A stretch of DNA of 64,000 bases from Arenicellales bacterium (GCA_965200645.1 CBDAUN010000003.1:1152968-1216967); one strand, 5' to 3'; counted from the stretch's first letter, positions 12,034-64,000 are shown. A program made the numbers and translations. Notes: a model not told the origin generated them from the letters alone.

Positions 12034-12137
12034 ATGTTGCTCAGTAAACTTGTAGACTAAGTGTATGCATTAGAAATGTTTAATAGTTATTCAAGTTATT
12101 ACAGCATTTGAGTCTTTTACACCTTTATATTCAAGAA

Positions 12138-14672
12138 ATGCGAAATTTAGTCGTCGTCGAATCCCCCACGAAGTCGCGCACCGTTAAACGGTATTTGAAC
12201 GAGTTAAAGGACGAAACTTTTGAAATCCTTGCAACCGGCGGTCACATCTACGAGATCGCACCAGGGGAAGATCAAGTAAATGTCACTGACAACTTCAAAA
12301 TGAACTACAACATCATCTCCACCAAGAGAAAATTCGTCAACGCAATCGTGAAAGCCATGAAGGAATCGGAAGTGCTTTACCTTGCAACTGACCCCGACCG
12401 TGAAGGGGAGGCCATTTCCGCACATGTATACGAAATTCTGGAGAAGAAAAAAGCATTGAATGACAAACCCGTCTATCGCATCGTGTTCTATGAAATTACC
12501 AAGGACGCAATCATTGAAGCGATTCGGGAACCCGGCGAAATATCTTCCGATTTAGTTCAAGCACAAAAAGCTCGAGCTGCACTCGATTATTTGATGGGAT
12601 TCAATCTTTCACCAGTACTGTGGAGAAAACTAAGTTCCAAAAGCCGGTCGGCCGGTCGTGTGCAAAGCCCCGCTCTACGATTGATAGTTGAACGACAGCG
12701 TGAAATTCAGGCGTTTAAGGCAGAGGAATTTTGGACGATTGAGGCAGATTTGTTTGAAGGTTCAAAGTTCACGGCGAAACTGACTCACCACAGCGATTCC
12801 AAATTGGATAAAAAGTCCATTAAGAATCAAGAACAGGCAGAACAAATAGTTGGTGATATTGAAGATGCGTTGGAACGCGAAAATAGTTGTGCTCGTGAAC
12901 TGAAGGTAATCGATTTAAAGAAATCGCTTCGAAATCGGCGCTCGCCTCCGCCACTAACCACTTCGACACTAGTCCAAGAGGCATCTAGACGATTTCGAAT
13001 GAATGCTAAAAACGTCATGTCGGTCGCTCAGCAACTGTATGAAGGAGTTGTCGTCAATGGTCAACAAACTGGACTGATCACCTACATTCGAACCGACTCC
13101 GTCACTCTCTCAGAAAACGCACTTAAACAACTTCGAGGCTTTATCAGAGAAAACTATGGCTCTGACTACCTCCCTGATAAACCCAATCGTTACAAGACTA
13201 AGTCTCGCACTGCACAAGAGGCTCATGAGGCCATTCGTCCTACCAATGTAAATCTCACACCTGCAAAGGTTAAGTCAGCACTTGCTCTGCAACAACATCA
13301 ACTGTATGAGTTGATATGGCAACGAACTGTAGCGGGTCAAATGGTTAATGCAGTATACGAACAGGCTACTGTGGAACTAGGAGTCGCATTGCATCGTTTT
13401 CGAGCAGCCGGATCGATACTACGCAAACCCGGCTATCTTACAGTCTATCGACCAAGTCCTGATGCTCAGGACAAAGCAGGTAAAAATTTTGCCGATGACC
13501 GAGCTCTACCAGCGCTGCAAGTAGGTCAATTAGTCAAGGTTGTGCAAATCCGTTCAGAGCAGCATTTCACTCAACCGCCGGCGCGTTACAACCAAGCTAG
13601 TCTGGTGAAGAAACTAGAGGAGTTCGGGATTGGCAGGCCCTCAACCTATGCCTCCATCATTACTAAACTGATCGAACGAGAATATGTCTCGCTGGAGAAG
13701 CAAGTGTTCTATGCAACTCAGCACGGGTGCGTAGTGAATGACTTTTTGGTGCAAAATTTCAGTCGATATATCGACTACGACTTTACTGCTAAGCTCGAGG
13801 AAGATTTAGACAAAATTGCTCGAGGCGATGAAGAGCGAGTGGCCTTTCTCGATGGATTTTGGAATCCATTCAACGCTGTGGTGCAGGAAAGGTTGCAAAG
13901 GTCGGAAAGATTCGAGCGTAAAATTGGCAGCGACCCGCATTCAGGACGGGATGTATTGGTGAAGTTTGGAAAATCTGGCCCTTACATTCAAATTGGTCGC
14001 AGAGAGGATGAAGAGACACCAAAATTTCTTTCATTACCATTGAGTTCAGACCCTGGAACCGTAACCTTCGAACAGATCAAGGAATCTTTGAGTGCTGTAC
14101 CATTGCCAAGAACAATTGAAGATGCTCCAGATGGCTTCGAAATTATTGCTCGTTCCGGAAGATTTGGCCCCTATATTTCGGTCAAGACCGACGCAGGCGA
14201 AAGTTTCAATGTCACAATTACGGAAGGCTATGATCCGCATACATTGACTGCAGAGCAGGCGATGGCATTGATCCAGAGTCGTCATAAACAAGGAGCGCGC
14301 AATCTAATTCAGGAATTTGATGGCATTCAAGTCTTGAACGGTCGCTACGGACCCTATGTCACCAATGGAAAGATTAATGCTACCATTCCGAAGCGTTTGG
14401 ACCCCGAAATTTTGGATCTTGAGACATGCAAGGAATTGCTAGAAAACAAGGCGCAGTCCCGGCGCAACCAAGGGCGTAAAACCCTTCATGAATTCGGTGA
14501 CTTACAGGTTTTGGAAGGTCGCTACGGGCCTTATGTCACTAACGGCAAAATCAACGCTTCAATTCCCAAGGGAACCGACCTGAATTCGATAGATGCTGAA
14601 ACCTGTCAGAAACTTATCGCTGAAAAAGCATCGTCTGGGAAAAACCCAAGGCGGTCTCGTCGAAAAAATTAG
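12138..14672 (+). CDS. topA: DNA topoisomerase I (type IA), with a repeat-type C-terminus lacking zinc ribbons
   Basis: Toprim VVVESPTK and DPDREGE, catalytic Tyr in GLITYIRTDS, and four C-terminal G(R/K)xGPY(I/V) repeats. The ATG at 12138 (MRNLVVVESPTK) is preferred to the track's TTG at 12108. Confidence 0.95.
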   Translation: MRNLVVVESPTKSRTVKRYLNELKDETFEILATGGHIYEIAPGEDQVNVTDNFKMNYNIISTKRKFVNAIVKAMKESEVLYLATDPDREGEAISAHVYEILEKKKALNDKPVYRIVFYEITKDAIIEAIREPGEISSDLVQAQKARAALDYLMGFNLSPVLWRKLSSKSRSAGRVQSPALRLIVERQREIQAFKAEEFWTIEADLFEGSKFTAKLTHHSDSKLDKKSIKNQEQAEQIVGDIEDALERENSCARELKVIDLKKSLRNRRSPPPLTTSTLVQEASRRFRMNAKNVMSVAQQLYEGVVVNGQQTGLITYIRTDSVTLSENALKQLRGFIRENYGSDYLPDKPNRYKTKSRTAQEAHEAIRPTNVNLTPAKVKSALALQQHQLYELIWQRTVAGQMVNAVYEQATVELGVALHRFRAAGSILRKPGYLTVYRPSPDAQDKAGKNFADDRALPALQVGQLVKVVQIRSEQHFTQPPARYNQASLVKKLEEFGIGRPSTYASIITKLIEREYVSLEKQVFYATQHGCVVNDFLVQNFSRYIDYDFTAKLEEDLDKIARGDEERVAFLDGFWNPFNAVVQERLQRSERFERKIGSDPHSGRDVLVKFGKSGPYIQIGRREDEETPKFLSLPLSSDPGTVTFEQIKESLSAVPLPRTIEDAPDGFEIIARSGRFGPYISVKTDAGESFNVTITEGYDPHTLTAEQAMALIQSRHKQGARNLIQEFDGIQVLNGRYGPYVTNGKINATIPKRLDPEILDLETCKELLENKAQSRRNQGRKTLHEFGDLQVLEGRYGPYVTNGKINASIPKGTDLNSIDAETCQKLIAEKASSGKNPRRSRRKN

Positions 14673-49393: not shown

Positions 49394-50140
49394 ATGACTG
49401 TCAATATTGTTACGATTAAATGGGGAACGTTGTACGGTCCCGAGTATGTTAATCATCTTCGATTTAGCGTTGAACGAAACTTGTCCATTCCATTTCGATT
49501 TTTGTGTTTTACAGATGATGACACTGGTCTGAATGATGGCATCGAAGTTTTTCCGCTTCCTTCAATCAAAATTCCAAATGTGCCTACTCGTTCATCCAAC
49601 TGGCGAAAGCTAGGCTTGTACCAAGCCGGAATCGGTAACATGGAAGGCGCTTGTCTATATATGGATTTGGATATTGTTGTCGTCGATTCCATAGATTGCT
49701 TTTTTGACTATGAACCCAATCAATTTTGTGCAGTTAGCGAGTGGATTCAAACCCATCGCAAAATCATTGCCAAGCGACCCGAAGAATTCAACACTTCTGT
49801 ATTTAGGTTTCAGGCAAATACCACACAGAAAATCGTCGATCGCTTTCAGCGTGAAGGCGAGTTCATATTGCAACATTTTCGAAGGGAACAACAATTTGTA
49901 ACAGACACAATCAAGCAGGACATTAAAGCCTGGCCGCGAGACTGGGTGGTGAGTTTCAAATACCACTGCCTGCCTGCCTTTCCGCTAAACTTGTTACAAA
50001 CACCGATACTACCTTCAACCGCGAAGATTGTCGCGTTTCATGGCAACCCTAATCCGGATCAGGCTGCAGTCGGATTTAGTGATGGCCCATGGCATCGCAA
50101 ATGTCCTGCAACACCTTGGATACAAGAACACTGGCGCTGA
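49394..50140 (+). CDS. Putative GT-A-fold glycosyltransferase-like protein, paralog 1
   Basis: 248 aa with VNIVTIKWGTLYGPEYVNHL...FRFLCFTDD and a DxD-like LYMDLDIVVVDSID. The fold assignment comes from motif pattern only. Confidence 0.5.
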   Translation: MTVNIVTIKWGTLYGPEYVNHLRFSVERNLSIPFRFLCFTDDDTGLNDGIEVFPLPSIKIPNVPTRSSNWRKLGLYQAGIGNMEGACLYMDLDIVVVDSIDCFFDYEPNQFCAVSEWIQTHRKIIAKRPEEFNTSVFRFQANTTQKIVDRFQREGEFILQHFRREQQFVTDTIKQDIKAWPRDWVVSFKYHCLPAFPLNLLQTPILPSTAKIVAFHGNPNPDQAAVGFSDGPWHRKCPATPWIQEHWR

Positions 50141-50149
50141 GTTTACCTG

Positions 50150-50911
50150 ATGAGTGTCAATGTAGTATGTATGAAATGGGGCGCCCTGTACGGAGCCCAC
50201 TATGTCAACAGGCTGTATCACGGCGTGCGACGTAATATGCAAAGACCATTCAGATTTGTCTGCTTTACCGATGATACAAATGGCATTATAGATGATGTGG
50301 AGTGTCACCCACTTCCATCAGTTGAGTTTTCTGACGCCGAAGAGGATCGAAGATGGCTTAAGCTCGGTGTGCTTCGAAAAGATATCGCCGACTTAAAAGG
50401 TGCTACTCTGTTTCTTGATTTGGACGTCGTGGTGATTGATTCGATAGACGACTTTTTTGATTACGAACCTGGTACATTTTGTATTAGTCATGACTGGTGG
50501 ATGCCGTATAAGCACCTTATCTCAGAGGTGATGAAAAGACCAAAAGTGGGCAACACTTCAGTATTTCGATTTGAAGCCGGCTCTATGAACTTTATTGTAG
50601 AAAAGTTCGAAGAACACTCTACTGAGGTGTTGCAGCAATTTGCACTTGAACAGGCCTATATTACTCATGAAGTGGGTAATCGAATTCGCTGGTGGCCTCA
50701 ACAATGGGTTAGTAGTTTTCGAAGACATTGCCGACCGGTATTTCCGATGAATTTACTGGTATCTCCTTCGATTCGAGCAGGAACTCGAATCGTAGCGTTT
50801 CACGGACTACCAAAACTGGACCAGGCCGCAAAAGGTTACATGACCCGCTATCCGCATAAGATTTGTCGTCCAAGCCCTTGGATTTCAGAGCACTGGCGAA
50901 CCGACGATTAG
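50150..50911 (+). CDS. Putative GT-A-fold glycosyltransferase-like protein, paralog 2
   Basis: 253 aa, colinear with paralog 1 (VNVVCMKWGALYGAHYVNRL...FRFVCFTDD, LFLDLDVVVIDSID, NTSVFRF, IVAFHG, PWI.EHWR). It starts 9 nt after paralog 1. Confidence 0.5.
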   Translation: MSVNVVCMKWGALYGAHYVNRLYHGVRRNMQRPFRFVCFTDDTNGIIDDVECHPLPSVEFSDAEEDRRWLKLGVLRKDIADLKGATLFLDLDVVVIDSIDDFFDYEPGTFCISHDWWMPYKHLISEVMKRPKVGNTSVFRFEAGSMNFIVEKFEEHSTEVLQQFALEQAYITHEVGNRIRWWPQQWVSSFRRHCRPVFPMNLLVSPSIRAGTRIVAFHGLPKLDQAAKGYMTRYPHKICRPSPWISEHWRTDD

Positions 50912-50939
50912 TTCAGCGGAGAAGTTGAATATAAAGCTT

Positions 50940-51593
50940 CTAATCTTTTGCGGAATTAGGTCTGCTGTAAACCACACGTACTTCACGCAGAAACTGAGAT
51001 TTGCCGCCGTGACTGGGATGCCTAACCTGAATATGCTGTCGGTTACCACAAAGTTTACTCACTGCTAACCCAGCATCATTGCCCAAAGATAGCAGCATTT
51101 TCGGGTTCAACATATCTAACAACTCCACTAACACTTCTTCACCAACCTGCCGTTCGTGAGAATTGAATTTTCGGTTCGATAGCGAGTTGTCCCAATTGTG
51201 TGGATGCAGAGGAAATACGTTCCATAAGAACACACAGTTATCTATGTCTGATAGTGCCTGCCAGACAAATGTTGCCGTCTGTTCTTTAGTCTGTTGTCCT
51301 TTGGTTGGACTAACTGTTGCAACGTCCCATCGGTCTCCATGACGACGCAAATTGACATCATCAGTCAATGCCAATCCACTTCGCCTTCCACCCCGGTATC
51401 CCAGTTCCCGACCAACCCACAGCGCGTCTATTTGCGAATTGACCGCTCGGTTCAGTATTTTGCGCAGGACCCTTCGACGTAATAGCGGTGCTCGAGCAAA
51501 GTCATGCACCGAACACAAGTCTGCGTATGGATTGAAAACGTTTTCGAACTTTAAGTTGGAAAGTTCCTCAACAAACTGCTTTGGGGTCATCAA
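50940..51593 (-). CDS. Uracil-DNA glycosylase-superfamily-like protein with a divergent motif A
   Basis: 217 aa. WVGRELGYRGGRRSGLALTDD aligns by eye with UDG motif A (G-x-x-P-G...TG-x-PF-T), and VRHPSHGG matches the HPS motif B. The family call rests on motif pattern only. Confidence 0.5.
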   Translation of the reverse strand: MMTPKQFVEELSNLKFENVFNPYADLCSVHDFARAPLLRRRVLRKILNRAVNSQIDALWVGRELGYRGGRRSGLALTDDVNLRRHGDRWDVATVSPTKGQQTKEQTATFVWQALSDIDNCVFLWNVFPLHPHNWDNSLSNRKFNSHERQVGEEVLVELLDMLNPKMLLSLGNDAGLAVSKLCGNRQHIQVRHPSHGGKSQFLREVRVVYSRPNSAKD

Positions 51594-51645: not shown

Positions 51646-52296
51646 TCAACATCCATTATTCACACAATCAACCAAACCCCAAACTTCACTAACCTCACAG
51701 TCCGTACCAGCCCGCCTCAACCACTCAGTACAATGCCAGCCCCAAGTGACCGCGACAGTCCTGCATCCTGCCAATTTACCCTGCTCGATGTCGCTTACCG
51801 TGTCACCAATCATCCATGTATTTGCCAAAACGCCATTATCTTCATCGACAATGGCTTTGATGCGTTCAGCCTTGGGGTGCTTAATGTCACCTCCGGCGAT
51901 ATGGTGAACGCAGTCACTTAAATCATTATGTTCCAGCAAAGCTTGGATAATTGGACCTGGAGTTGCTGACACTATCCCAACTCTTGACTCTTTACTCAAG
52001 TGACTAATTACTTCATCCATCTTTGGAAATATTGGAGTCTGACCAACGCGAAGGTGCAATTCCCGATCAAGAATTTCAATGAACTCTCTGGTATATTCAG
52101 GATTGACATTCGCCCTATCTACCAGATTTGCAATCGACATATTGTGCAGTGTCTGTAAGTCTCTTGCGGCAAATGACACTGGCTGGTCAAGTTCTCGCCC
52201 GGCTAGATTGATAATGTCAACGAAAATGTCTAAGGTATCAACAATTACGCCATCGTAATCAAACAAAACTATCTTGGGACTGGCTGTCTCGACCAT
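51646..52296 (-). CDS. HAD-superfamily hydrolase (phosphatase, PGP-like subfamily IA)
   Basis: Motif I VLFDYDGVIVDT, motif II GIVSATPG, and motifs III/IV K...IGDTVSDIEQG. Confidence 0.8.
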   Translation of the reverse strand: MVETASPKIVLFDYDGVIVDTLDIFVDIINLAGRELDQPVSFAARDLQTLHNMSIANLVDRANVNPEYTREFIEILDRELHLRVGQTPIFPKMDEVISHLSKESRVGIVSATPGPIIQALLEHNDLSDCVHHIAGGDIKHPKAERIKAIVDEDNGVLANTWMIGDTVSDIEQGKLAGCRTVAVTWGWHCTEWLRRAGTDCEVSEVWGLVDCVNNGC

Positions 52297-53618
52297 AACT
52301 TCCTAGCCCCATCTCTTTGGTACACTGGCGAACCCATGCTCCAGGTCTCACGAACATTATTGACGCTACCCATAATTGCATACACAAAGAGACGTTCCTG
52401 TATATCTTTCGCCCGGTCGAGACGTCGACGCATGAGGTTTGACCCGCCGTCATCCATTACTACGAAATCAGCTTCCTTGCCTACATCAAAACTACCCACA
52501 TGTTGATCAATTTTCAGTGTCTTTGCTCCTGCTAGTGTAGCAAGATAAAACAACTGAATACCGTCCAAATGCTCACCGTTGAGCTTTGCCACTGCGTACA
52601 TTTCCCGCATTGTCTGTAGCATGGAAAAACTAGTTCCACCGCCAATATCAGTTCCCATACTCATAGGTACACCATGCTGTGCCAAGTAGCTTGGTCTAGC
52701 CAAACCGCTACCGATAAAGGTATTTGAAGTCGGACATAAGACCGCTGTCGCACCCGCATCAGCCAATCTTTTACACTCGGATTCACTGAGATGAATGCAG
52801 TGGGCAAAGGATGAACGTTCTGTCACCATTCCGTATGACTCGTAGATACCCACATAGTCTGACGCTTCCGGATAAATTTGCAACACCCAGGAAATTTCTG
52901 CTTTTGTCTCCGATAAATGCGTGTGAAACAATATGTCCGGGTATTTTTCAAGGAGTTTTCTACATGCAATCATCTGATTGCGAGTTGACGAACCTGCGAA
53001 CCTTAGAATGAAGGCGTAGGACTGTCGCCCCGTACCGTGCCACTCTTGAATGAGCCCCTCTGTTTCCTTAACTCCTAAAGTAGTTCCATCTAGCAACCCT
53101 TCCGGTGCGTTTTGGTCCATGAGCACCTTACCAGTCACCATACGAAGGTTTCGAGCGTGAGACTGTTGAAATAGTATCTGAGCAGAAACTTTATGAACGG
53201 TCGGAAATGCTAAGGCACTGGTCGTTCCATTTGTGACAAGTTCATTCAAGAACTCGTCAGCCACCTCAGAACAATAGTCTGTTTTTGCAAACAACTGCTC
53301 TTCGGGATACGTGTGGGTATGCAACCACTCCAACAACCCAGGAGCAGGAGAGGCGAGCAGACGAGTTTGTGCATAGTGAATGTGTGAATCTATGAATCCT
53401 GGGCAAATTAGACAATTGGGATACTCAAGTAGAGGGTACTCACGAAAATCAGATTTTGAAAATTCTTCAAATGTCAGAACTCTAAGAACACGACCGTTTC
53501 GCAATATCATCACTCCATCTTCCAAGTTTCGCCATTCAAACGAAGCATTGGAGTGCTTATCTGTTGCGAAGAATATTTCTCCTCTTATGGCAAAGTCAGT
53601 GAAATGTCCCATTCGCAA
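52269..53618 (-). CDS. guaD: Guanine deaminase (amidohydrolase superfamily)
   Basis: PGFIDSHIHYAQT metal-binding HxH, HLSE, and a C-terminal GSFDVGKEADFVV. It sits in a purine-salvage context (xdh, nucleoside ABC transporter). Confidence 0.8.
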   Translation of the reverse strand: MRMGHFTDFAIRGEIFFATDKHSNASFEWRNLEDGVMILRNGRVLRVLTFEEFSKSDFREYPLLEYPNCLICPGFIDSHIHYAQTRLLASPAPGLLEWLHTHTYPEEQLFAKTDYCSEVADEFLNELVTNGTTSALAFPTVHKVSAQILFQQSHARNLRMVTGKVLMDQNAPEGLLDGTTLGVKETEGLIQEWHGTGRQSYAFILRFAGSSTRNQMIACRKLLEKYPDILFHTHLSETKAEISWVLQIYPEASDYVGIYESYGMVTERSSFAHCIHLSESECKRLADAGATAVLCPTSNTFIGSGLARPSYLAQHGVPMSMGTDIGGGTSFSMLQTMREMYAVAKLNGEHLDGIQLFYLATLAGAKTLKIDQHVGSFDVGKEADFVVMDDGGSNLMRRRLDRAKDIQERLFVYAIMGSVNNVRETWSMGSPVYQRDGARKLWSRQPVPR

Positions 53619-53708: not shown

Positions 53709-54785
53709 TTAGTTCGGGACTGATCCTTCAACACCTTGGACGTAATAGTTCATTGCGTGCATATCACCCTCTGACATGACCTGACCGTCTTCCACAATCA
53801 CAGTACCGTCCTGAGCAAAAATTGGTCCGGTAAATGGATGAAACGCACCCGTTCTGATCGACTCTTCTACCGCTTTTGCATCAGCAATTACCTCTGCTGG
53901 TACTGTCTTGGCATTGTACTCAGACATTATCAGCATGCCGGTACTGAGACCATCCCAGACATCCTGCGAAGCCCAAGTCCCATCCATGACAGCCTGCACT
54001 CTTGTTTTATAGTATGCACCCCAGTTGTTTATGGCTGCATTTAGATGAGCATTAGGAGCAAAAGCAAGCATGTTTGATGCCTGGCCAAATCCAAAAGCGC
54101 CTCTATCCTCTGCAACTTGCAACGGGGCTGGGGAATCCGTATGCTGCGCCAGGACATCGGCACCCTGATCGATCAGTGCCTTGGCGGCATCACTTTCCTT
54201 ACCCGGATCGAACCAAGTGCTTACCCATACAACTCTGACTCTAGCGTCTGGATTTACGCTGTTTAACCCCACTGCAAATGCATTAATTCCTCGCACGACT
54301 TCTGGAATAGGAAAAGAGGCAATATAGCCGATGATGTTGGATTTAGTCATAGCGCCAGCGATACGACCATGGATATAGCGACCTTCGTACCAACGAATGT
54401 TATAGGTACTGACGTTGTCTGCCCGTTTGTAACCAGTAGAATGTTCAAACTTAACGTCGGGGAACAACTTAGCTACTTTGTTAGTTGGATCCATATAACC
54501 GAAAGAGGTCGTAAAGATGAGACCGTGTCCGTCAGCAGCCAGTTGACGAATAACACGTTCGGCGTCTTGACCTTCGGGGACCGATTCAACAAAGGTAGTT
54601 TCGATTTTATCGCCAAATTCTTGTTCAATCTGTAGTCGACCTTGGTTATGCTGATAAGTCCAGCCATGATCACCAACGGGACCAACATACACAAAACCGA
54701 CCTTTAGCGGCTCTCCTGCCGATGCTGTCAGCCAAATTGCACTCAACATCAATATTGAAATGAACTTGCGAACCATAGTGCGCAT
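53709..54785 (-). CDS. BMP-family (PnrA/Med-like) ABC transporter substrate-binding protein, probably for nucleosides/purines
   Basis: Signal peptide, then KVGFVYVGPVGDHGWTYQHNQG and FTTSFGYMD, typical of the BMP family. The ATG at 54785 is preceded by GGAGGTG and is preferred to the track's TTG at 54797. Confidence 0.85.
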   Translation of the reverse strand: MRTMVRKFISILMLSAIWLTASAGEPLKVGFVYVGPVGDHGWTYQHNQGRLQIEQEFGDKIETTFVESVPEGQDAERVIRQLAADGHGLIFTTSFGYMDPTNKVAKLFPDVKFEHSTGYKRADNVSTYNIRWYEGRYIHGRIAGAMTKSNIIGYIASFPIPEVVRGINAFAVGLNSVNPDARVRVVWVSTWFDPGKESDAAKALIDQGADVLAQHTDSPAPLQVAEDRGAFGFGQASNMLAFAPNAHLNAAINNWGAYYKTRVQAVMDGTWASQDVWDGLSTGMLIMSEYNAKTVPAEVIADAKAVEESIRTGAFHPFTGPIFAQDGTVIVEDGQVMSEGDMHAMNYYVQGVEGSVPN

Positions 54786-55246
54786 AATCACCTCCAAAAG
54801 GATATTATTTTAATTTTAGTGCTGCCAAAAGAGGCTTGTCAGTGCGTGATACTGCCTATTTTTGACTAGCGATGTGTCTTTTTCTCAAGTGAGATGGACA
54901 CCTAAGTTGATAAGTATAAACCTTTACTCCACTCATTAGACGTGGAAGTTTTTATCACGTATCAAGGGGGTAGGTTATTACTATGGACCACACTTTTATA
55001 CAGGCGACGTGAAGCTGCGATAGCTAACCTGTCTGATCAAGAAACTCAAACTATTGAAGTCATAAAATCAGCAAGGACACTAGGCGAACACAGACTAGAT
55101 ATTCTCTTTGGATAAGCTTGAAAAACGGTCGGGTCGGTGTAAATAGGCTGTAATCTCCAACTACACTTCATTGGAAAATTACAGGTAACAATAAGCGTAC
55201 TGCTTGAATCCATGTACTAAATTTAAAGGACTCGCTGAAAATTTTT

Positions 55247-56983
55247 TCAATCCAACTCCCACATTGGAATCTGCTGATTGAACTTAAGGTGAGTTTGCTG
55301 GAGCAACACTGAATCAAATACATCCTCTAAACCCGGTGTTGAGTCCGATAGGATCCTCAAACTTGCAGTAGCTTCATTGAAGAACCGATTGGGAAGTCCG
55401 CTGGAGGAGTCCATATATGCCACGTCCCACCAATCGAGTATTCGCTCGCGGGCTTGGTGCAAAATTTCTCGACTTGGCAGCTTATCGCGCTTCTGATATT
55501 GATTTATGCTACGCTTTGACGGCATTAAATTCCACATGTCTTCGCAAGGCCATGCCGAAAACGGAAAGCAGTGATCAATATCCACATTCTTTGTATTTAT
55601 TCGTTTTCCGCTCCAAATGCAGTGATTGAATACATTATTTTCAATAAGTTGTTTCGCTCTTTGTCTCGGATACACAGTGCTACGTGTAGGATCGCTCCAT
55701 ACTAAAGCCTCTTCCATGGCTTCGAAATTCAGTTGTCTATCCCCCTGACTCTTTGCGAACCTTCTCATTAGACTCTTCCACTCCGATATGATCGCAGGCT
55801 CTATCCATGCGCCATAATTTTGTGCGGCCTGCCATACTCCCAAAGGAATCGTCACACTGCCAAAACTTCGCAGATAGTCGGTACTTATCACTCCGTTAAA
55901 TGCACTTCGGTTGCGCAACGATTGAGCAACAAAAACTTGATTCTTAGTTCCGGGATAAGTCGTAAAATGCATTGGGAAGTTAACCAGTGAATTACAGATC
56001 TCCTTGAGTGCGCGATGAAGATTTTTTAGATTGTCGTCTGAAAATACTGCACCAACTCTTATGTCTAGTGTGCTAACGCTATCAAGACGATGATAGGCTT
56101 CTCGCGCGAATCCAACCCCATCTGTTCCCTGTGTATTGGTTGAAAGCTGAGGTAGATTTTCATCCAGTAAAGGCCGATAGAGTCGCAACCAATATAAAGC
56201 GAATAAACCTAATGGAAGAACGACGTGTTTATCGTGGACCTGAGCTAGGCCTCCTGCGGACTGCGAAATACGAATTAAAGTTCTTAGCAGACCAAGTTTA
56301 TAGGTAGCTGTTTTCCTGTCGTTTAGGATGATGCCCCGCAGCAATGGCAAAGCGCCTGTGCCATCGCCCGGAGTTCGAAATACTAATCTTGTCCAATAAA
56401 CGCCTGGGCGACCGAGTTTGTCTGCTTCCTTTGAACACTCGACCTCGAATAGTCCAAAGTCGCGTGCATATGCGCGAACTTGTTCATCGGGAATATCCCA
56501 AAAGCCTTGAACTGGTTCGAAAGGTCCGTGTCGTAAAGTAATACAAAGCAACCCGTTAGGATTTAGCATGGATACCAAGCGCCTGAAAGCCGCTGACCTT
56601 TCAGATTGAGTGACGTGCATCCACACAGCACTGAGCAAAATGACATCGTAACTGAGGCCGGCTTTCCTCACTTTATTCAACTTTGGCAGACTGTCATCAA
56701 TCCAGTCAATATTGGAAGCATGATGATTTTTACGGGCTATTTCCCGTAGTTTAGAGCATGGCTCGACGGCGGTTACGCTATGTCCAAGCCTCGCTAAACC
56801 GGCGGCATCTCTTCCGGTTCCCGCGCCCACATCCAACACCGCACAGGCCTTTTTCGGTAAGTGCTTGATTAACTCAGCATGAACTTCCTCAAACGAAAAT
56901 CTTTCGTATTTCTTCGCAGTTTTCGAAGCGTTTTGCTCGTACCACTGACTCGCAATGATTGGGCGAATAGATTTTTCAACCAT
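55247..56983 (-). CDS. Fusion protein: class I SAM-dependent methyltransferase + uncharacterised central region + HNH (His-Me finger) nuclease
   Basis: 578 aa. MTase motif I VLDVGAGTGRDA, post-I AVE, DVILLSAVWMHV. The C-terminal VDIDHCFPFSAWPCEDMWNLMPSKRSINQYQKRDKLP is an HNH/HNN motif. I cannot assign the ~270-aa middle region. Confidence 0.7.
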   Translation of the reverse strand: MVEKSIRPIIASQWYEQNASKTAKKYERFSFEEVHAELIKHLPKKACAVLDVGAGTGRDAAGLARLGHSVTAVEPCSKLREIARKNHHASNIDWIDDSLPKLNKVRKAGLSYDVILLSAVWMHVTQSERSAAFRRLVSMLNPNGLLCITLRHGPFEPVQGFWDIPDEQVRAYARDFGLFEVECSKEADKLGRPGVYWTRLVFRTPGDGTGALPLLRGIILNDRKTATYKLGLLRTLIRISQSAGGLAQVHDKHVVLPLGLFALYWLRLYRPLLDENLPQLSTNTQGTDGVGFAREAYHRLDSVSTLDIRVGAVFSDDNLKNLHRALKEICNSLVNFPMHFTTYPGTKNQVFVAQSLRNRSAFNGVISTDYLRSFGSVTIPLGVWQAAQNYGAWIEPAIISEWKSLMRRFAKSQGDRQLNFEAMEEALVWSDPTRSTVYPRQRAKQLIENNVFNHCIWSGKRINTKNVDIDHCFPFSAWPCEDMWNLMPSKRSINQYQKRDKLPSREILHQARERILDWWDVAYMDSSSGLPNRFFNEATASLRILSDSTPGLEDVFDSVLLQQTHLKFNQQIPMWELD

Positions 56984-57384
56984 ACCGATTTAAGTTGAAC
57001 GACTTACATTTAACGTCTTGAGGACTGCTTAAGTTGCTCTAAAGACTAACTTGAAACTTATGTTTTAACTAAAACATAGAATCCATCAATCTACTGACAT
57101 ATTTCCCTGAGAACTTTGTAATGAATTCAATTTTACAACCACAAATCGATGTTCAACAATCGACATATCTAGTTCAAAAAGAATTTCGCTAATGCTTATA
57201 AAGCCTCGACTTTATCAAATTTGTGTCCATCGGTAAATCGTAAATGATGAACCAAAACTACCTTTTCTTGACTCGAACTTGATTCTTGGAAATCGCCCAA
57301 ACCAATGGCCTTTTCGATCTTCTGTAAATGACTTAAAATTTTTTTACCTTGAATATTTAACATTTTAAATTAATATAGCCTACT

Positions 57385-58578
57385 GTGTACATACGACACC
57401 TAGCCTCAGAAATTTTCCAACAAATCGACTTTTATCCGGTTGTGGCCATCCTAGGGCCTCACCAGATAGGTAAGACTGCGCTTGCACTAGAGGTTTCCAA
57501 GAATCATTCGCCCGTCTACATTGACCTGCAGGATTTAGATGACTTTCTTAAACTGAACAGGTCCACTTATTTTTTAGAACATTTAGCGGAAAAGACAGTC
57601 ATTCTTGATGGCGTGGAACGTTATCCGGATTTATTTACAAAACTCCGTGATGTAATTTATTCCAGAAGGCGAGAAGGACGTGGGAGTGGGCGTTTTTTCA
57701 TTTTAGGTTCAAGGTCAATTGAATTTATTAAACAAAACCCCGATAGTCTTACTGAATTAATCCATTATTGTGAGCTGTCGGGTCTGAGTCCATTTGAAAT
57801 CAAACAACCGCAAGGCCAGTCACTACAAGACTTGTGGTTACGCGGCGGATTTCCCGCAAGTTACGCTGCAGCAGATGACAAAGAAAGTTATAGATTGCGC
57901 CAACAAATCATTCGCACCTATATTGACCACGACATTCCTCAACTTGGTCCTCGCATGCCGCCTGATATGCTTTTGCGTTTTTGGACCATGCTGGCACACA
58001 CCCAAGGTGGCTTGCTCAATGCCTCAAAGCTTGCAGAGTCACTAGATGTAAGGAGCGTGACCATCAGTAGATACCTACAATTTATGATTGGTCTTTTCTT
58101 GATTCGTAGACTTGATTCTTACACAGGGGTTAATGTAAACAAACGGCTCGTTAAATCACCAAAAATCTACATTCGAGACAGCGGTATTGTTCATGCATTA
58201 CTGCAAATCACCGATTATCCATCACTATTGAGCCATCCAATTTCTGGTAAGAGTTGGGAAGGATTTGTCGTTGAAAATATCCTTAACGCTCTACCTTCGG
58301 GAGTCAAGCCATACTTCTACCGAACTGCTGTCGGTGCGGAAATTGATCTTCTGTTGGAATTTGGACCGGATGAATTCTGGGCAATCGATATCAAATCCGG
58401 TCGAACTGCTGCACTAAAAAAAGGGTTTCATTTGGCTTGTGCCGACTTGAATGTAAAAACCAAATTTGTAGTCTACACCGGTGAAAGTTTACTCCAGCTT
58501 GACGACGACACTACCGTGTTGCCACTTTCGCAGTTGTTGGGAATCTTGAATGAAAAATTCAAGGAATTTTCTTATTGA
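57385..58578 (+). CDS. AAA+ ATPase of the AAA_14/DUF4143 type
   Basis: 397 aa with Walker A ILGPHQIGKTALA near the N-terminus and Walker B-like VILDGVERYPD. The C-terminal third has the layout of DUF4143 proteins. GTG is the only in-frame start after an upstream TAA. Confidence 0.7.
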   Translation: MYIRHLASEIFQQIDFYPVVAILGPHQIGKTALALEVSKNHSPVYIDLQDLDDFLKLNRSTYFLEHLAEKTVILDGVERYPDLFTKLRDVIYSRRREGRGSGRFFILGSRSIEFIKQNPDSLTELIHYCELSGLSPFEIKQPQGQSLQDLWLRGGFPASYAAADDKESYRLRQQIIRTYIDHDIPQLGPRMPPDMLLRFWTMLAHTQGGLLNASKLAESLDVRSVTISRYLQFMIGLFLIRRLDSYTGVNVNKRLVKSPKIYIRDSGIVHALLQITDYPSLLSHPISGKSWEGFVVENILNALPSGVKPYFYRTAVGAEIDLLLEFGPDEFWAIDIKSGRTAALKKGFHLACADLNVKTKFVVYTGESLLQLDDDTTVLPLSQLLGILNEKFKEFSY

Positions 58579-58689
58579 GTTGCAAGTTAGTAATTTAAAC
58601 AATTACAAAGCCTTACTGGACGAAATCAATACACCAAATTGATGAATCTTAGTTCGGTTGAAATAGCCCTCTTGGTCTGCTGTTGTCTG

Positions 58690-59619
58690 CTACTTGTTCG
58701 GATGAAATATCTGACCAATACAAGCCGGTGCGTTTAGTTTTACTCTTGTTGAATCCCGAGAAATCAGTACCAGCACCAATATAGTGATCAGATACGGCAT
58801 CATGGACAGTACCTGGGCGGATACCTGCACCCCAATTCCTTGAAGGTGCAGTTGCAGTATAGTCACCGCACCAAACAGGTATGCACCAATTAAGACCCTA
58901 CCCGGTTTCCAAGACGCAAATACAACTAAAGCCAAGGCAATCCACCCTCTTCCGGCAGTCATATTCTCAATCCAAAATGGCGTATATGAAAGAGAAAGAA
59001 ATCCGCCGCCAAGTCCGCTCATTGCTCCGCCAAAGGAGATCGCCAAAAATCTAACTTTAAGAACCGAGTAACCTATGGAATGGGCTGAATCGTGTGACTC
59101 TCCGACTGCTCGAAGAATTAATCCGGATCTAGTGCGATATAAAAACCAATGTACTGCCACAACCATAAACAGCGATAAGTAAATCAAAATGTCATGAGAA
59201 AACAGTAATGGACCAATTAACGGTAATTCAGAGAGAATTGGTATATTCAACGAAGGTAACTTCTCAATCGGTTCACCCACAAATGGAAGTCCGATTAATG
59301 CACTCAACCCTATACCAAACAGAGTCAATGACAAGCCTGATGCCACCTGATTCGCTAAAAACACTAAAGTTAGCAACGAAAATAAGCAAGATATCATTAC
59401 GCCAGCAAGTGCCGCTACAAAAATGCTAAGCACCCAATTGCCAGTCGTCAACATGGTTGCAAATCCACAGACTGCTCCAACAAGCATCATGCCTTCGACG
59501 CCAAGATTCAGCACACCCGACTTTTCAGTCACTAATTCGCCTGTCGCTGCAAATAGCAATGGTGTTGCTGCACTGACAACTGTTAATAGAATTAATTCAG
59601 CCGTTCCGATAACTTCCAT
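58690..59619 (-). CDS. ABC transporter permease (BMP/nucleoside type, second permease)
   Basis: 309-aa polytopic protein of the branched-chain/ribose-type permease family. It has a 1-nt overlap with the preceding permease gene. Confidence 0.85.
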   Translation of the reverse strand: MEVIGTAELILLTVVSAATPLLFAATGELVTEKSGVLNLGVEGMMLVGAVCGFATMLTTGNWVLSIFVAALAGVMISCLFSLLTLVFLANQVASGLSLTLFGIGLSALIGLPFVGEPIEKLPSLNIPILSELPLIGPLLFSHDILIYLSLFMVVAVHWFLYRTRSGLILRAVGESHDSAHSIGYSVLKVRFLAISFGGAMSGLGGGFLSLSYTPFWIENMTAGRGWIALALVVFASWKPGRVLIGAYLFGAVTILQLHLQGIGVQVSAQVLSMMPYLITILVLVLISRDSTRVKLNAPACIGQIFHPNK

Positions 59620-60701
59620 TATGAAACTTCACCCGTTGCAGTTTGTGGCTTACGCCACTGTATCTTGTAGTTGATTAATACATCGGTAGCCAAAAGGAAA
59701 AACAAAAGCATTCCCTGAAATACACCCGCGATACCGCGTGGCAAACCAAGTCTTATCTGAACAAAATCTGCACCAAGGTAGGTTAGTGCTAGTATCAGAC
59801 TTGCCACCAACACTCCGATTGGATGAAGCCGTCCCAAAAACGCCACAATGATGGCAGTAAATCCATAACCTGGGGACACAACAGGCTGCAACTGTCCCAA
59901 AAGTCCGGATACTTCAACTATGCCGGCGAGTCCAGCAAGAGCACCTGTGCCCAACATTGTGATCCAAACAATATGCGAGTATTTGATCCCGCTGTACTTC
60001 GCTGCTCCCGTTGCCAGACCTGCAACCCGAACCTGAAATCCAATTAGTAACTTCGACAGTACAATCCAACCTGCAACCGCAGCAAACAAGGCTATAAATA
60101 CACCAGCATGAAGGCGTGTACCTCGCCATAAATTGGGCAGTTCTGCGACGGCAGGAAAGTCAACACTTTCGGGAAAATTAAATCCTCCCGGATCCTTCCA
60201 AGGGCCGTGAACCAGATTGCTCAAGAGCAAAATGGCTACATAAACCAACATCAGACTGGTTAAGATTTCGTTGGTATTGAACCTTGCCTTCAAAAATGCT
60301 GGAATCGCCGCCCATGCCATCCCGCCAAGCATTCCCATCATAAGAATTCCGGGTAGCATGAGAAAATTTTCGGAGGTGGGATTGTAGATGACCAAACTCC
60401 CGCCCACAATAGCTCCCACCACTAATTGCCCTTCCGCTCCAATATTCCAGACATTAGCTCTAAATCCGATCGATAACCCAACCGCTATCGTAGCGAGCGG
60501 AACTGCCTTAATGATCAATTCACCAATTCCATAGCTATCTGCCAAAGGACTAACAAAAAAAGCGAGCAACGACTGGATTGGCGGATGACCTAGAACATAG
60601 AACAGTATCCCTCCGGTAATGATGCTTAACGTCAATGCTAACAAAGGCGTTAGCCATATCATGAGTTTCGAATGGGTTGCTCTTGGGACTAATCTAATCA
60701 T
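59619..60701 (-). CDS. ABC transporter permease (BMP/nucleoside type, first permease)
   Basis: 360-aa polytopic protein that starts 16 nt after the ATPase gene. Confidence 0.85.
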   Translation of the reverse strand: MIRLVPRATHSKLMIWLTPLLALTLSIITGGILFYVLGHPPIQSLLAFFVSPLADSYGIGELIIKAVPLATIAVGLSIGFRANVWNIGAEGQLVVGAIVGGSLVIYNPTSENFLMLPGILMMGMLGGMAWAAIPAFLKARFNTNEILTSLMLVYVAILLLSNLVHGPWKDPGGFNFPESVDFPAVAELPNLWRGTRLHAGVFIALFAAVAGWIVLSKLLIGFQVRVAGLATGAAKYSGIKYSHIVWITMLGTGALAGLAGIVEVSGLLGQLQPVVSPGYGFTAIIVAFLGRLHPIGVLVASLILALTYLGADFVQIRLGLPRGIAGVFQGMLLFFLLATDVLINYKIQWRKPQTATGEVS

Positions 60702-60717: not shown

Positions 60718-62238
60718 CTACGAAAACTGTGTCCCGCCCATCAAAAGCCCAATTTTTTCCGCACTCAAATCCTGAACGGCATATGGTTGAGATAATGTCC
60801 CTGCAAACATCACAGAAATTCTTCCGCACAGCTCCAACAGTTCGTCCAGGTCCTGAGAAATCACCAGCACTGCTGCACCATTTGCTGCCAAATCCATCAG
60901 GGATTGATGAATCGCCTGCTGCGACCCGGCATCAACACCCCAAGTTGGCTGGCATGCGAGCATTACTTTGGGATACTGCGTAATTTCCCGACCCACTAAA
61001 TACTTTTGTAGATTGCCACCCGACAAGCTGCCTGCATCAGCCTGAACCCCTGCATGTTTGACATCAAACTCAACACAAATATCTTCGGCATATTTTCTGG
61101 CATTGGCATAATTCAACCACTGTCCCTTAACCAGTTGGTAGCGGTCATGTCCACTTAGAAACGAGTTTTCAACTAGTGACATCCGTGCTACTGCACCGTG
61201 ACCAAGTCTCTCCTCTGGCACGCTCGCCACACCCATTTTTCGGCGCGCTCGAACCCCCAGCCTTCCACAGCCTTGCCCATTAATTTGTATCGTACTGTTG
61301 GTCTCGCAAGTGTCCTCACCAGAAAGCATACACATCAATTCATTCTGCCCATTACCCGCTACACCCGCGATTCCGAAAATTTCGCCCGCATGAACTTCAA
61401 AATTAATGTCCTTAAGTGAAATACCACGCTCATTGGTCGCTGCATACGATAATCCGCTTACAGCCATCACTCGGTCACCTAACTCCTGTTGACTACCTGT
61501 CGCAACTTTGAGTTCGCGGCCGATCATTATTTCTGCCAGACTTCTCGCATCCTCTTCGCTGGGTTTGCATTCGGCGACTACCTTGCCTTGACGTAATACT
61601 GTTGCTCGGTCACACAATGCCTGAATTTCTTCCAACTTGTGACTGATATACAAAATTGCGCAACGTTCCTTGGCAAGTTTTCGTAGTACTTCAAACAATC
61701 GGTCTGCTTCCTGAGGAGTCAATACGGACGTGGGTTCATCCATAATTAGAAGCTTTGGTGATTGGAGCAAACAACGCACAATTTCAACTCGTTGACGCTC
61801 TCCAACCGAAAGCTCGAACACATTGCGACTCGGGTCAAGTTCCAACTGATAAGACTCAGACACACTGATAATTTTTTCATCTAGTTCCGATCTGGTAAGT
61901 CCCGTAGAAGTGGCGAGTTCAATGTTTTCACGCACCGTCATCGCTTCAAAAAGTGAAAAATGCTGAAAGACCATCCCGATCCCCATCTGTCTAGCGATAG
62001 CGGGACTCGCGACCGAAACAGGCTCACCCTTCCACTGCACAGTACCAGAGTCAGCGCAGTGATAACCGTAAATGATCTTAACCAGAGTGCTCTTTCCGGC
62101 ACCGTTTTCGCCCAATAAAGCATGAATTTCGCCTTCAGCTATCGATAGGTCTATGGAATCATTCGCCACTACTCCGGGGAACGCCTTCGAGACTCCGTTT
62201 AGTTGGAGCAATAGATTCGGAGTTGTATTTTCAGGCAT
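60718..62238 (-). CDS. ABC transporter ATP-binding protein with duplicated ATPase domains (sugar/nucleoside importer type)
   Basis: First domain: Walker A GENGAGKST, signature LSVGERQRVEI, Walker B LLIMDEPT. The second domain has LSGGNLQK. Confidence 0.9.
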   Translation of the reverse strand: MPENTTPNLLLQLNGVSKAFPGVVANDSIDLSIAEGEIHALLGENGAGKSTLVKIIYGYHCADSGTVQWKGEPVSVASPAIARQMGIGMVFQHFSLFEAMTVRENIELATSTGLTRSELDEKIISVSESYQLELDPSRNVFELSVGERQRVEIVRCLLQSPKLLIMDEPTSVLTPQEADRLFEVLRKLAKERCAILYISHKLEEIQALCDRATVLRQGKVVAECKPSEEDARSLAEIMIGRELKVATGSQQELGDRVMAVSGLSYAATNERGISLKDINFEVHAGEIFGIAGVAGNGQNELMCMLSGEDTCETNSTIQINGQGCGRLGVRARRKMGVASVPEERLGHGAVARMSLVENSFLSGHDRYQLVKGQWLNYANARKYAEDICVEFDVKHAGVQADAGSLSGGNLQKYLVGREITQYPKVMLACQPTWGVDAGSQQAIHQSLMDLAANGAAVLVISQDLDELLELCGRISVMFAGTLSQPYAVQDLSAEKIGLLMGGTQFS

Positions 62239-63280
62239 GCCTTACTTCTGCATCTTGAACCAATGAATTATTGATCTTAAGGCGAGCTTCTAGTATCTGA
62301 GCTGAGGTGGATAGTGCAATGACTGAAGGATGCTTGCCACGAATACTTGACAAGCCAACTGGGCAATGTAATCGCTTCAGTACGAAAGCATCGATTCCCT
62401 TGTTCATTAAACGCAGTTCAAAGCGTCTACGTTTTGTTTCTGAGCCAATTAATCCCAGCCAACCGAATTCACGATTTGCAAGAATTTGATGGACAATTTC
62501 AAAGTCCACTGCATGGCTATGAGTCATCACAACGCAAAATGTGTTTGAATCAATATCACTTACTGCGTCAACCGGATTTTGTAAAGTTCGAATTGTGGCA
62601 TTATCAGGCACGCTATCCGGAAATATTTCTTTTCGACTGTCAATCCACTGAACTTGAAAGGGTAAGTTACCTAGCACGTTTACAAGTGCTTTTCCAACAT
62701 GACCGGCTCCGAAGAGGATCAAATTTGTGGGTTTTTCGTCCAGCCGGGTAACCAACCATTCTTCGCCATTGTGTTGTTCAAGAATTGATGCCGGTTCGCT
62801 TGTTTGCTTCAGTTTTTCCATCGCTCTTGCCACTGCAATTGGCATCTGACTTTCTTCCTGCTTTGTGTTGAATAGACTACTGCTTGCTTGTGAATCAACA
62901 CAAATCGGTGTAGCAAACAAATAATAGAGGCATCCTCTATCGCTACTAGTGAGGTTTAGAAACTGCTTACTGGATATTTCGTCATAACGCTCAAAATGCA
63001 AGCGCACCGCACCACCGCAGCATTGGCTTAGAACATCCCCCAAACCAATAAATTTATCCAGTCGATTGGCAGCATCAGGGTTTGAAAGCATGGTGCGGGC
63101 ATCTTCAATGGCGACATACTCCAGATGTCCACCACCGATACTGTCACAGGATTCTTTTGCAGAAACCACGATTCTTGCACCGACTTCGCGTGGTGATGAT
63201 CCGATTACTTCAACCACAGTCACAATGACGAACGGTTGTTTCGATTTCGCCAAATTAATGCTAGCCTCGAACCAGTTCAT
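62231..63280 (-). CDS. xdhC: Xanthine dehydrogenase accessory (molybdenum cofactor insertion) protein XdhC
   Basis: XdhC/CoxI N-terminal VTVVEVIGSSPREVGARIVV and a Rossmann-like LILFGAGHVGKALV. It overlaps the xdhB stop (ATGA). Confidence 0.8.
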   Translation of the reverse strand: MNWFEASINLAKSKQPFVIVTVVEVIGSSPREVGARIVVSAKESCDSIGGGHLEYVAIEDARTMLSNPDAANRLDKFIGLGDVLSQCCGGAVRLHFERYDEISSKQFLNLTSSDRGCLYYLFATPICVDSQASSSLFNTKQEESQMPIAVARAMEKLKQTSEPASILEQHNGEEWLVTRLDEKPTNLILFGAGHVGKALVNVLGNLPFQVQWIDSRKEIFPDSVPDNATIRTLQNPVDAVSDIDSNTFCVVMTHSHAVDFEIVHQILANREFGWLGLIGSETKRRRFELRLMNKGIDAFVLKRLHCPVGLSSIRGKHPSVIALSTSAQILEARLKINNSLVQDAEVRHA

Positions 63281-64000
63281 CTCACTGCACTCATCTGTTC
63301 AACACTTGCCAGCACCCGCTCTGGTGTTGCTGGTGCATTCAAGTTTGGCCAAGCCCGATAACCTGAAACACTGGATACCGCATCGCAAATGGCACCAAAG
63401 ACGGAAATTGCCAGCATCAGCGGCGGTTCACCAACTGCTTTGGACCGGTAAATGGTAGATTCGGGATTACGTCCTCGATCCCACAGTTGCACTTCCCACT
63501 GCTTCGGCACATCGCCTGATGTAGGAATCTTGTAAGTCGAAGGAGCATGCGTAGCCAGTTTGCCCTGGTCATCCCACCAAAGCTCCTCACTGGTTAGCCA
63601 ACCCATACCCTGGACGAATCCACCTTCAACCTGACCAATATCAACTGCTGAATTTAACGAACTGCCTGCATCGTGCAGTATGTCTACTTGGAGTACTCTT
63701 GTTTCTCCTGTGAGACAGTCAATCACAACCTCACTGACAGCTGCTCCACAACCGAAATAGTAAAATGGCCGTCCAGTCATTGAACCGCGATCCCAGCTGA
63801 TTTTGGGAGTGCCGTAAAACCCCGTAGCCGTTAACTGAACACGCTGACGATGTGCGAATGCAACGAGTTCGGCAAAACTAATCGAATGTCTTCCTACTAT
63901 CACCTGGCCATTTACAAACATCACTTCATTGGCTCTAACTGAGTAAAGCTGGGTTGCCACCGCAATCAGGCGATTTTTAATTTTTCTAGCTGCATCCTTT
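63277..64000 (-). CDS. xdhB: Xanthine dehydrogenase molybdopterin-binding subunit, C-terminal part (5' end outside the window)
   Basis: The frame stays open to the window edge. YYFGCGAAVSEVVIDCLTGE, DAGSSLNSAVDIGQVEGGFVQGMGW and SKAVGEPPLML match aldehyde-oxidase/xanthine-dehydrogenase Mo-subunit C-termini. Confidence 0.85.
   Translation of the reverse strand, partial: KDAARKIKNRLIAVATQLYSVRANEVMFVNGQVIVGRHSISFAELVAFAHRQRVQLTATGFYGTPKISWDRGSMTGRPFYYFGCGAAVSEVVIDCLTGETRVLQVDILHDAGSSLNSAVDIGQVEGGFVQGMGWLTSEELWWDDQGKLATHAPSTYKIPTSGDVPKQWEVQLWDRGRNPESTIYRSKAVGEPPLMLAISVFGAICDAVSSVSGYRAWPNLNAPATPERVLASVEQMSAVR

Follow-up and report, generated by a model that had tools for sequence, protein, structure and literature searches.

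We analysed a 64,000-nt stretch of DNA (hereafter the window) from an uncultured marine gammaproteobacterium of the Arenicellales (GCA_965200645.1, CBDAUN010000003.1:1152968–1216967), in which the last permease gene of a purine-salvage transporter is separated from its BMP-family substrate-binding protein (SBP) gene by 3.9 kb carrying two unrelated genes, a methyltransferase–HNH fusion and an AAA_14/DUF4143 ATPase. The explanation we favour, with moderate confidence, is that this junction is an old break that serves as a permissive slot, that it holds two independently acquired accessory genes, and that the two halves of the operon are expressed separately. The xdh–ATP-binding cassette (ABC)–permease genes and the SBP–guaD–HAD genes would both derive from a single ancestral purine-salvage operon, with the SBP gene placed immediately after the last permease gene; this junction would have come apart long ago in the lineage of this organism. 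No other junction of the operon is uncoupled, and this one would accept content that varies between relatives, here two independently transcribed single-gene loci. The methyltransferase–HNH protein would be a stand-alone nucleic-acid-targeting conflict or defence protein whose S-adenosylmethionine (SAM)-binding domain marks a self substrate or gates the HNH nuclease; the other would be a PDC-S01-type protein that, with its Walker B glutamate and arginine motif lost, is probably unable to hydrolyse ATP. The importer would stay usable, because the SBP–guaD–HAD unit is directly preceded by a ribosome-binding site and probably a promoter of its own. Of these points, the identities of the genes, the derived position, the lack of co-inheritance, the loss of motifs and the fixation in the sampled population are shown by the data, and the defence role, the order of events and the use of the promoter are inferred.

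Ancestral gene order at the interrupted junction

Species-representative genomes and JGI metagenomes yielded at least 160 loci that contain a homologue of permease 2, the last permease (54–74% identity), and all operon proteins were mapped onto these loci. An SBP gene was located downstream on the same strand in 129 of the at least 160 loci listed, and the gap between permease 2 and this gene was 400 bp or less in 123 of the 129 (median 71 bp) and larger in six. Adjacency of the two genes is evidently the widespread, ancestral state, and the 3.9-kb gap in the window is therefore derived, which bears out the original prediction, made from the sequence of the window alone, of an insertion into an older operon. 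In the 80 genome loci for which maps were tabulated, the ABC ATPase/permease 1 and permease 1/permease 2 junctions were tight. Neither inserted gene was found among the listed loci outside this species; as had been proposed, the two genes are not a conserved part of the operon at this position.

These data also bear on the idea that the inserted genes take part in the salvage of purines or help to regulate it, for instance by methylating a purine or nucleoside. The genes do sit inside a purine operon, the methyltransferase–HNH gene lies on the operon strand with no predicted terminator before the SBP gene, and an Ald_Xan_dh-type gene is found 0.9 kb away from one of its homologues (locus L192). 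However, both genes are absent at the junction in all 128 other listed loci with a downstream SBP gene, the other homologues examined occur in unrelated contexts, and purine catabolism offers no function for an HNH nuclease domain; we regard a purine role as close to refuted.

The best genome match among the loci listed, an Arenicellales metagenome-assembled genome (OZ244840.1, L001; 74% permease and 65% SBP identity), shares the derived SBP–guaD–HAD order with the window. Its junction gap of 3.7 kb (10931–14670) contains MgtE, MgtE_N/CBS and MscS-like genes, all on the opposite strand. Comparison of the two inserts revealed no MgtE or MscS remnants in the window spacers and no remnants of the window genes in L001, with matches at chance level only; the sole shared sequence was the 70-bp 3′ end of permease 2, which was included in both extracts. 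A protein search of 5.8 billion sequences returned closest SBP homologues of 72–75% identity, and the most similar one on a long contig (72%; L196, contig ctg717470l of ERZ21830300, 1–10077) belongs to an SBP–HAD arrangement with no ABC or permease gene within 9 kb upstream and with guaD missing between SBP and HAD. Five further, more distant loci also carry something between the permease and SBP genes (an ion channel and membrane proteins in L079), and the cargo differs among the window, L001, L079, L116 and L132. The junction is a permissive slot and its break is old in this clade. The notion of a fresh hit on a tightly coupled operon had to be abandoned, given the other cargo of L001 and the fully detached SBP gene of L196.

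As L196 shows, the SBP module can change its position within this clade independently of the other transporter genes.

Organization of the locus

The locus comprises the following features, given in window coordinates and in the direction of the operon, with lengths of proteins in amino acids (aa) and open reading frames abbreviated as ORFs.

63277–63960, minus strand: C-terminal part of xdhB (ORF), where the upstream half of the operon begins within the window
62231–63280, minus strand: xdhC, XdhC_CoxI accessory protein (ORF and same-species contigs)
60718–62238, minus strand: ABC transporter ATPase with two ABC_tran domains (Pfam ABC_tran, 1.5e-46)
59619–60701, minus strand: permease 1, BPD_transp_2 (Pfam, 5e-37)
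58690–59619, minus strand: permease 2, BPD_transp_2 (Pfam, 3e-33), which closes the upstream half and served as synteny anchor
58579–58689: 111-bp spacer between the convergent ends of the permease 2 and DUF4143 ATPase genes, GC 0.369
57385–58578, plus strand: AAA_14 + DUF4143 (PD-(D/E)xK) ATPase-nuclease, 397 aa (Pfam DUF4143, 1.4e-39; AAA_14, 7e-14)
56984–57384: divergent AT-rich 401-bp spacer between the two inserted genes, GC 0.317
55247–56983, minus strand: methyltransferase–HNH fusion, 578 aa (Pfam Methyltransf_25/11 at aa 49–148, HNH_4 at aa 455–503)
54786–55246: 461-bp spacer 5′ of the SBP gene (449 bp if counted from TTG), GC 0.383
53709–54785, minus strand: BMP-family SBP, which opens the detached downstream half (Pfam Bmp, 6.9e-55)
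52269–53618, minus strand: guanine deaminase, guaD (NCBIfam TIGR02967 guan_deamin, 468 bits against a cut-off of 375; 2.3e-140)
51646–52296, minus strand: HAD-family phosphatase (Pfam HAD_2, 4e-21)

The ORF map reproduced base for base the coordinates reported earlier, including the overlaps of 4 nt (xdhB/xdhC), 8 nt (xdhC/ABC ATPase) and 1 nt (permease 1/permease 2), the 16-nt gap from the ABC ATPase gene to permease 1 and the ATG start of the SBP gene at 54785; the description of two unrelated genes on opposite strands with three AT-rich spacers (GC 0.38, 0.32 and 0.37 in the order 461, 401 and 111 bp, compared with 0.455 over the whole window) was likewise correct. Full-length xdhB, as present in same-species contigs, encodes a 771-aa Ald_Xan_dh/MoCoBD protein. 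A strong GGAGG ribosome-binding site lies five nt upstream of the SBP ATG, the alternative TTG start at 54797 given by the ORF tool overlaps this site, and same-species contigs from seven independent assemblies annotate the protein as 358 aa with the ATG start. The ATPase, both permeases and the BMP-family SBP are all present but not contiguous, the SBP gene being 3.9 kb off.

Two other features of the region were recorded. A 55-aa ORF in the divergent spacer (57196–57363, minus strand) is called in about half of the same-species assemblies and has no Pfam or other family match; it is located where AT content and polymorphism are highest and is probably spurious. Between the HAD gene and rplU-rpmA-obg-proB are three genes (49394–50140, plus; 50150–50911, plus; 50940–51593, minus), two of them without a Pfam or NCBIfam match and the third with a weak uracil-DNA-glycosylase-superfamily match below the cut-off (E 0.0014); this patch (49394–51593) may be another small accessory patch adjoining the purine locus.

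Two stand-alone genes rather than one cassette

Eleven other methyltransferase–HNH loci were examined for their neighbours, which were as follows (IS, insertion sequence).

L174 (8001–13547; between pssA and leuA in a 4.2-Mb genome of the same sample series): AAA_14/DUF4143 ATPase and DDE_Tnp_1 transposase
L175: NERD/PhoH-like helicase
L179: three FitA/PIN toxin–antitoxin pairs
H1, Roseomonas plasmid: McrC, DUF3578 McrB-like gene, VapBC, IS21
H2, Roseomonas plasmid: HxsBC, IS1182/IS5
H4, Azospirillum plasmid: two HNH endonucleases, IS21, HxsD
H6, Sphingobium conjugative plasmid: IS256
H9, Pseudoalteromonas plasmid: dGTPase, NERD protein
L194: Fic
L173 and L192: plain housekeeping genes

This neighbourhood profile is that of an accessory, conflict-related gene, as an association only, and makes a defence role plausible. 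Both inserted genes come from families of patchy distribution that occur in variable regions with many mobile and defence genes, so that their description as accessory-type genes stands.

Their description as a single cassette does not. According to that explanation, a then intact operon received, in a single event, a two-gene defence cassette with cooperating proteins. In its favour, the genes are neighbours with a common divergent control region of 401 bp, each protein contains a nuclease domain, and L174 repeats the pairing beside a DDE transposase. However, L174 is the only one of the 11 other loci with a DUF4143 ATPase gene as neighbour, its pair is convergent whereas that of the window is divergent, and the ATPases of the two loci are only 27% identical as against 59% for the methyltransferase–HNH proteins. 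The L174 ATPase is canonical, with DE and AGR intact, whereas the window combines an intact methyltransferase–HNH protein with a partner that has lost ATPase catalytic residues. Co-occurrence, orientation and divergence thus fail to indicate co-inheritance, and these mismatches, together with the degeneration of one partner, mark the two as stand-alone genes and not a co-evolving pair. Repeat and tRNA searches found no element boundaries. Since PDC-S01 is a single-gene candidate and among the commonest accessory genes (PMC12988326), chance co-location in variable regions is expected, and we consider a single cassette quite improbable.

A PDC-S01-type ATPase with altered catalytic motifs

The DUF4143 ATPase matched seven PADLOC PDC-S01 models (best PDLC04790, 2.3e-71), and its Pfam AAA_14 and DUF4143 domains both scored above cut-off, in agreement with the PDC-S01 architecture. 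PDC-S01 is a single-gene candidate proposed by ‘guilt by embedding’, an ATPase fused to PD-(D/E)xK; it has been described as fourth in frequency among the defence types of prokaryotes, with experimental validation pending (PMC12988326). DUF4143 itself has been classified as PD-(D/E)xK (PMC3424549). Homologues about 60% identical to the window ATPase were found in Myxococcota, Rhodobacterales, Hyphomicrobiales and Spirochaeta, and this occurrence in distant taxa indicates horizontal spread. A sequence search of solved structures gave no match for the window ATPase.

Comparison with 13 homologues, which shared a mean of 79% identity with one another and 59% with the window ATPase, revealed that the latter deviates at 46 of the 185 positions that are invariant among them; each homologue deviated at 1–13. 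Walker A is kept (GPHQIGKTA), but Walker B, which contains DE in each of the 14 homologues compared, is changed from ILDEVQ to ILDGVE (E76G, Q78E), and TEL stands in place of the conserved AGR (aa 123–125). Walker B DE and AGR are kept even in the 27%-identical paralogue of L174. The window protein thus does not have the intact set of P-loop ATPase motifs (Walker A, Walker B hhhDE and AGR), and canonical ATP hydrolysis has probably been lost. The PD-(D/E)xK motif of the DUF4143 domain is present, AEIDLLLE...WAIDIKSG aligning with EID...(E/D)xK of the homologues. The earlier assignment to defence-type genes is therefore upheld in part: the PADLOC run identified the ATPase as a PDC-S01 candidate, but its core ATPase catalytic residues are gone.

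The methyltransferase–HNH fusion and its family

The methyltransferase–HNH protein consists of a class I SAM methyltransferase domain (aa ~10–205), a middle module (aa ~205–450) and HNH_4 (aa 455–503). In a 36-sequence alignment, methyltransferase motif I (VLDVGAGTGRDA) was conserved, a strongly conserved LPLLR.IILND.K..TYKLGLLR opened the middle module, and D470, H471, N485 and N494 of the HNH_4 domain (25.5 bits against a cut-off of 22) were invariant, so that the nuclease domain has its catalytic residues intact. The window protein deviates at 2 of 88 family-invariant positions, both times conservatively, and the population variants in its gene were 4 synonymous and 0 non-synonymous, a count that is partly biased, as several contigs were chosen for exact identity. 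On these sequence comparisons, the protein appears intact and selectively maintained.

The family is large. A search returned 1950 homologues at E ≤ 1e-5, and the best 120 of the 1950 were mostly full length (84–100% of the query). The C-terminal 374 aa alone matched 1233 cluster representatives at 50% identity, most of them 560–595 aa long and matching from about residue 200, and some stand-alone proteins of 370–450 aa; the methyltransferase and nuclease halves also occur as separate genes on plasmids. Members of the family are scattered over Alpha- and Gammaproteobacteria, Cyanobacteria and Acidobacteriota, some of them plasmid-borne. Five long contigs (363493, 3244837, 1492617, 3458003 and 3544205 bp) carry both an SBP homologue (66–72% identity) and a methyltransferase–HNH homologue (51–55%); in L179 and L194, the two cases examined, these genes occupy separate and non-syntenic positions, so that the family is common in this clade without being positionally stable. 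A homologue of the methyltransferase domain alone, 200 aa long (35% identity, E 2e-28), is encoded by the temperate coliphage phi458 (Escherichia phage, OP434518.1, L195 2917–3519); it adjoins the integrase in an accessory region, and the nuclease half is missing.

An AlphaFold (AF2) model built from the alignment had a predicted local distance difference test score (pLDDT) of 83 and a predicted template-modelling score of 0.80, and its N-terminal domain resembles cg3271, CmoM, TehB and UbiG, which are small-molecule or tRNA methyltransferases, and not DNA methyltransferases. Profile matches were likewise of the small-molecule type only (Methyltransf_25/11/23, TehB, UbiG). None of the DNA-methyltransferase models of Pfam and NCBIfam (N6_Mtase, N6_N4_Mtase, DNA_methylase) matched, and no NPPY/DPPY, (D/N/S)PP(Y/F) or PCQ motif was found in the 36-sequence consensus. 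A model of the C-terminal half (pLDDT 81) had no Foldseek match in PDB or BFVD, a sequence search of solved structures with the fusion protein gave generic methyltransferases only, and a literature search found nothing on the fusion family.

It is possible, though doubtful, that this family of ~575-aa proteins is a new single-protein immune or conflict system in which the SAM-binding domain controls the HNH nuclease. Such control could consist in marking a non-canonical self substrate, or in sensing SAM levels that phages manipulate, and the window copy would be a working member of the family that selection has retained within a metabolic operon. The family comprises hundreds of 50%-identity clusters, is not represented in PADLOC as a system and has a middle module without structural relatives.

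Age of the insert and expression of the operon halves

Contigs with the exact permease, DUF4143 ATPase or methyltransferase–HNH protein belonged to one population with 99.3–99.96% nucleotide identity. Among the 10 same-species contigs shown by the permease look-up, seven carry both inserted genes and three end inside the ATPase gene; none is insert-free or has adjacent permease and SBP genes. The three that end inside the ATPase gene (L189, L190 and L191; ends at ~57700–57996) come from other samples, and one is the most divergent strain (99.3%). These ends are attributed to fragmented assemblies; they could also be strain-level structural variation within the insert. In a further assembly (L187/L090, ERZ25070917, 2x coverage), the methyltransferase–HNH protein is called as 536 aa and xdhA/xdhB are split, with 2 mismatches and 2 indels relative to the window; these differences are most likely low-coverage long-read indel errors and not real pseudogenes.

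Composition was compared across 46 genes of the window. Relative to the other 45, the methyltransferase–HNH gene was ordinary in GC (z −0.17), GC at third codon positions (GC3; z 0.0) and codon usage (z −0.8), whereas the DUF4143 ATPase gene had the lowest GC of the 46 (z −2.1) with ordinary GC3 and codon usage. Compositional foreignness of the insert was rejected on this basis, GC3 and codon usage being in the host range and only the overall GC of the ATPase gene being low. A recent arrival is contradicted by this windowed check of composition and by the continuation of all 10 contigs shown into the insert; the insert is old and fixed in the sampled population.

No transposase or integrase ORF was found among ORFs of at least 25 aa, target-site duplications or boundary repeats were only short, imperfect and no better than chance, and no tRNA that could provide an attachment site lies within the window. 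The insert does not have the features of an IS, transposon or integrative island, and the earlier statement that no integrase, transposase or convincing target-site duplication is present held in the ORF, repeat and tRNA searches. The 401-bp divergent spacer had the highest density of population variants (10 variants/401 bp) and no similarity to the upstream regions of the 11 homologous methyltransferase–HNH loci; nothing was common to the 5′ regions of the 12 genes compared.

Analysis of the region upstream of the SBP gene identified a sigma-70-like site (CTGACA-18-TAAAAT, 54842→54813, minus strand) that lies 28 nt upstream of the ATG and, with 10 of 12 matches, is the best in the region; it is only a hint of an own promoter. 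No intrinsic terminator was predicted, and no unusually stable fold found, in the 111-bp convergent spacer, nor was a terminator predicted between the methyltransferase–HNH and SBP genes. Read-through from the former into the latter is possible, because the two are on the same strand with no predicted terminator between them. The spacers contained no match to Rfam families or riboswitches at E ≤ 1, and their folds were not clearly unusual (z-scores −0.3 to −2.5).

Alternatives and points of doubt

Several observations weigh against the explanation favoured here. The mechanism proposed for the methyltransferase–HNH protein is weakly grounded, since its methyltransferase is not of the DNA-methyltransferase type and its middle module has no fold relatives. 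Defence by either family has no experimental support, PDC-S01 being unvalidated, and in L173 and L192 the homologue is surrounded by housekeeping genes. The window ATPase is not simply decaying or a free-running pseudogene: its ORF is intact, and its population variants (8 synonymous and 4 non-synonymous, small counts) resemble those of the ABC ATPase gene (10:5) and xdhC (11:4) and are signs of purifying selection. The protein may be a non-hydrolysing, repurposed copy. Sigma-70-like matches in the region upstream of the SBP gene were no more frequent than in shuffled sequence. Closer loci could have escaped the collection of at least 160, although the 5.8-billion-protein search argues otherwise. 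The databases searched contained no relatives at 75–99% identity, and for this reason the order and number of events are not reconstructible.

Homologues of the methyltransferase–HNH protein in at least five same-clade genomes, moreover, make vertical inheritance of a non-defence function possible. In this alternative, the inserted genes would be ordinary clade genes, such as a relic ATPase and an enzyme of RNA/tRNA modification or of repair, brought to the junction by rearrangement with no defence or mobile biology. It agrees with the host-like GC, GC3 and codon usage, with fixation in the sampled population, with the lack of mobility genes in the window, with the resemblance of the methyltransferase domain to tRNA and small-molecule methyltransferases, and with the housekeeping surroundings of some homologues; ordinary transporter genes also fill the junction in relatives. 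The homologues in related genomes are, however, non-syntenic, the family is scattered over several phyla and plasmids, and its repeated neighbours are IS elements, toxin–antitoxin pairs, McrBC, NERD and dGTPase genes. The closest ATPase homologues, moreover, come from Myxococcota, Spirochaeta and Rhodobacterales. We therefore rate vertical inheritance as unlikely, and prefer independent acquisition of two accessory genes at an old, permissive junction.

Relation to known systems and significance

The arrangement itself is real but fairly ordinary and of a kind already known, one more case of accessory genes at a permissive junction, with a transporter that is probably still expressed from two units. 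The permease/SBP junction is the one place where this tight BMP-type ABC operon tolerates interruption (~5% of the 129 loci), and its repeated breakage in this lineage, with different cargo each time, is useful for the prediction of operons and insertion hotspots. The most promising lead is the methyltransferase–HNH family, which is large, conserved, uncharacterised and outside the defence models searched, and which is a reasonable candidate for experimental screening.

The ATPase resembles PDC-S01 in its two-domain architecture, profile match, Walker A and D...DxK motifs and its occurrence as a solo gene in a variable region, but differs in Walker B (DG), in TEL for AGR and in the 46 of 185 invariant positions changed. 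Such a degenerate yet constrained copy is a caution for automated counts of defence systems, as a strong match to a hidden Markov model can mask a catalytically dead protein.

The sole match of the methyltransferase–HNH protein in the defence libraries was to mad2 of MADS (PADLOC PDLC04134, 7.8e-21), over the methyltransferase domain (aa 23–205), and this match was better than that of any generic Pfam methyltransferase model. However, only mad2 profile positions 268–446 of 492 were covered, and no other mad model was hit by either inserted protein. Membership of MADS was rejected: the resemblance to mad2 is that of one domain, and the annotated neighbours are purine-operon genes.

Type IIG/IIC enzymes, such as those like MmeI, are single-polypeptide methyltransferase–nuclease restriction enzymes. 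The window protein resembles them in that a single polypeptide contains a SAM methyltransferase and a nuclease and that its gene stands alone in accessory regions, but its methyltransferase is of the TehB/UbiG/CmoM type, its nuclease is HNH_4, and it contains no recognisable target-recognition domain. A restriction–modification-like (Type IIG) identity was not established, as the methyltransferase is not of the DNA-methyltransferase type.

Winged-helix/PUA–HNH enzymes are modification-dependent (Type IV) endonucleases (PMC11037411, PMC6765204). The likeness lies in an HNH domain fused to an N-terminal accessory module and in solo genes in defence islands; the window protein differs in having no PUA, EVE or SRA domain, in the added methyltransferase and in a middle module without a solved match.

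Accessory and defence genes insert at variable slots between conserved core genes, and the locus as a whole is closest to this pattern. The likeness lies in the conserved flanks with different cargo in each relative (the window, L001, L079, L116 and L132). The locus differs in that the slot lies inside a former operon and not at a tRNA/integrase hotspot, and in that the cargo of the relatives consists of ordinary transporter genes.

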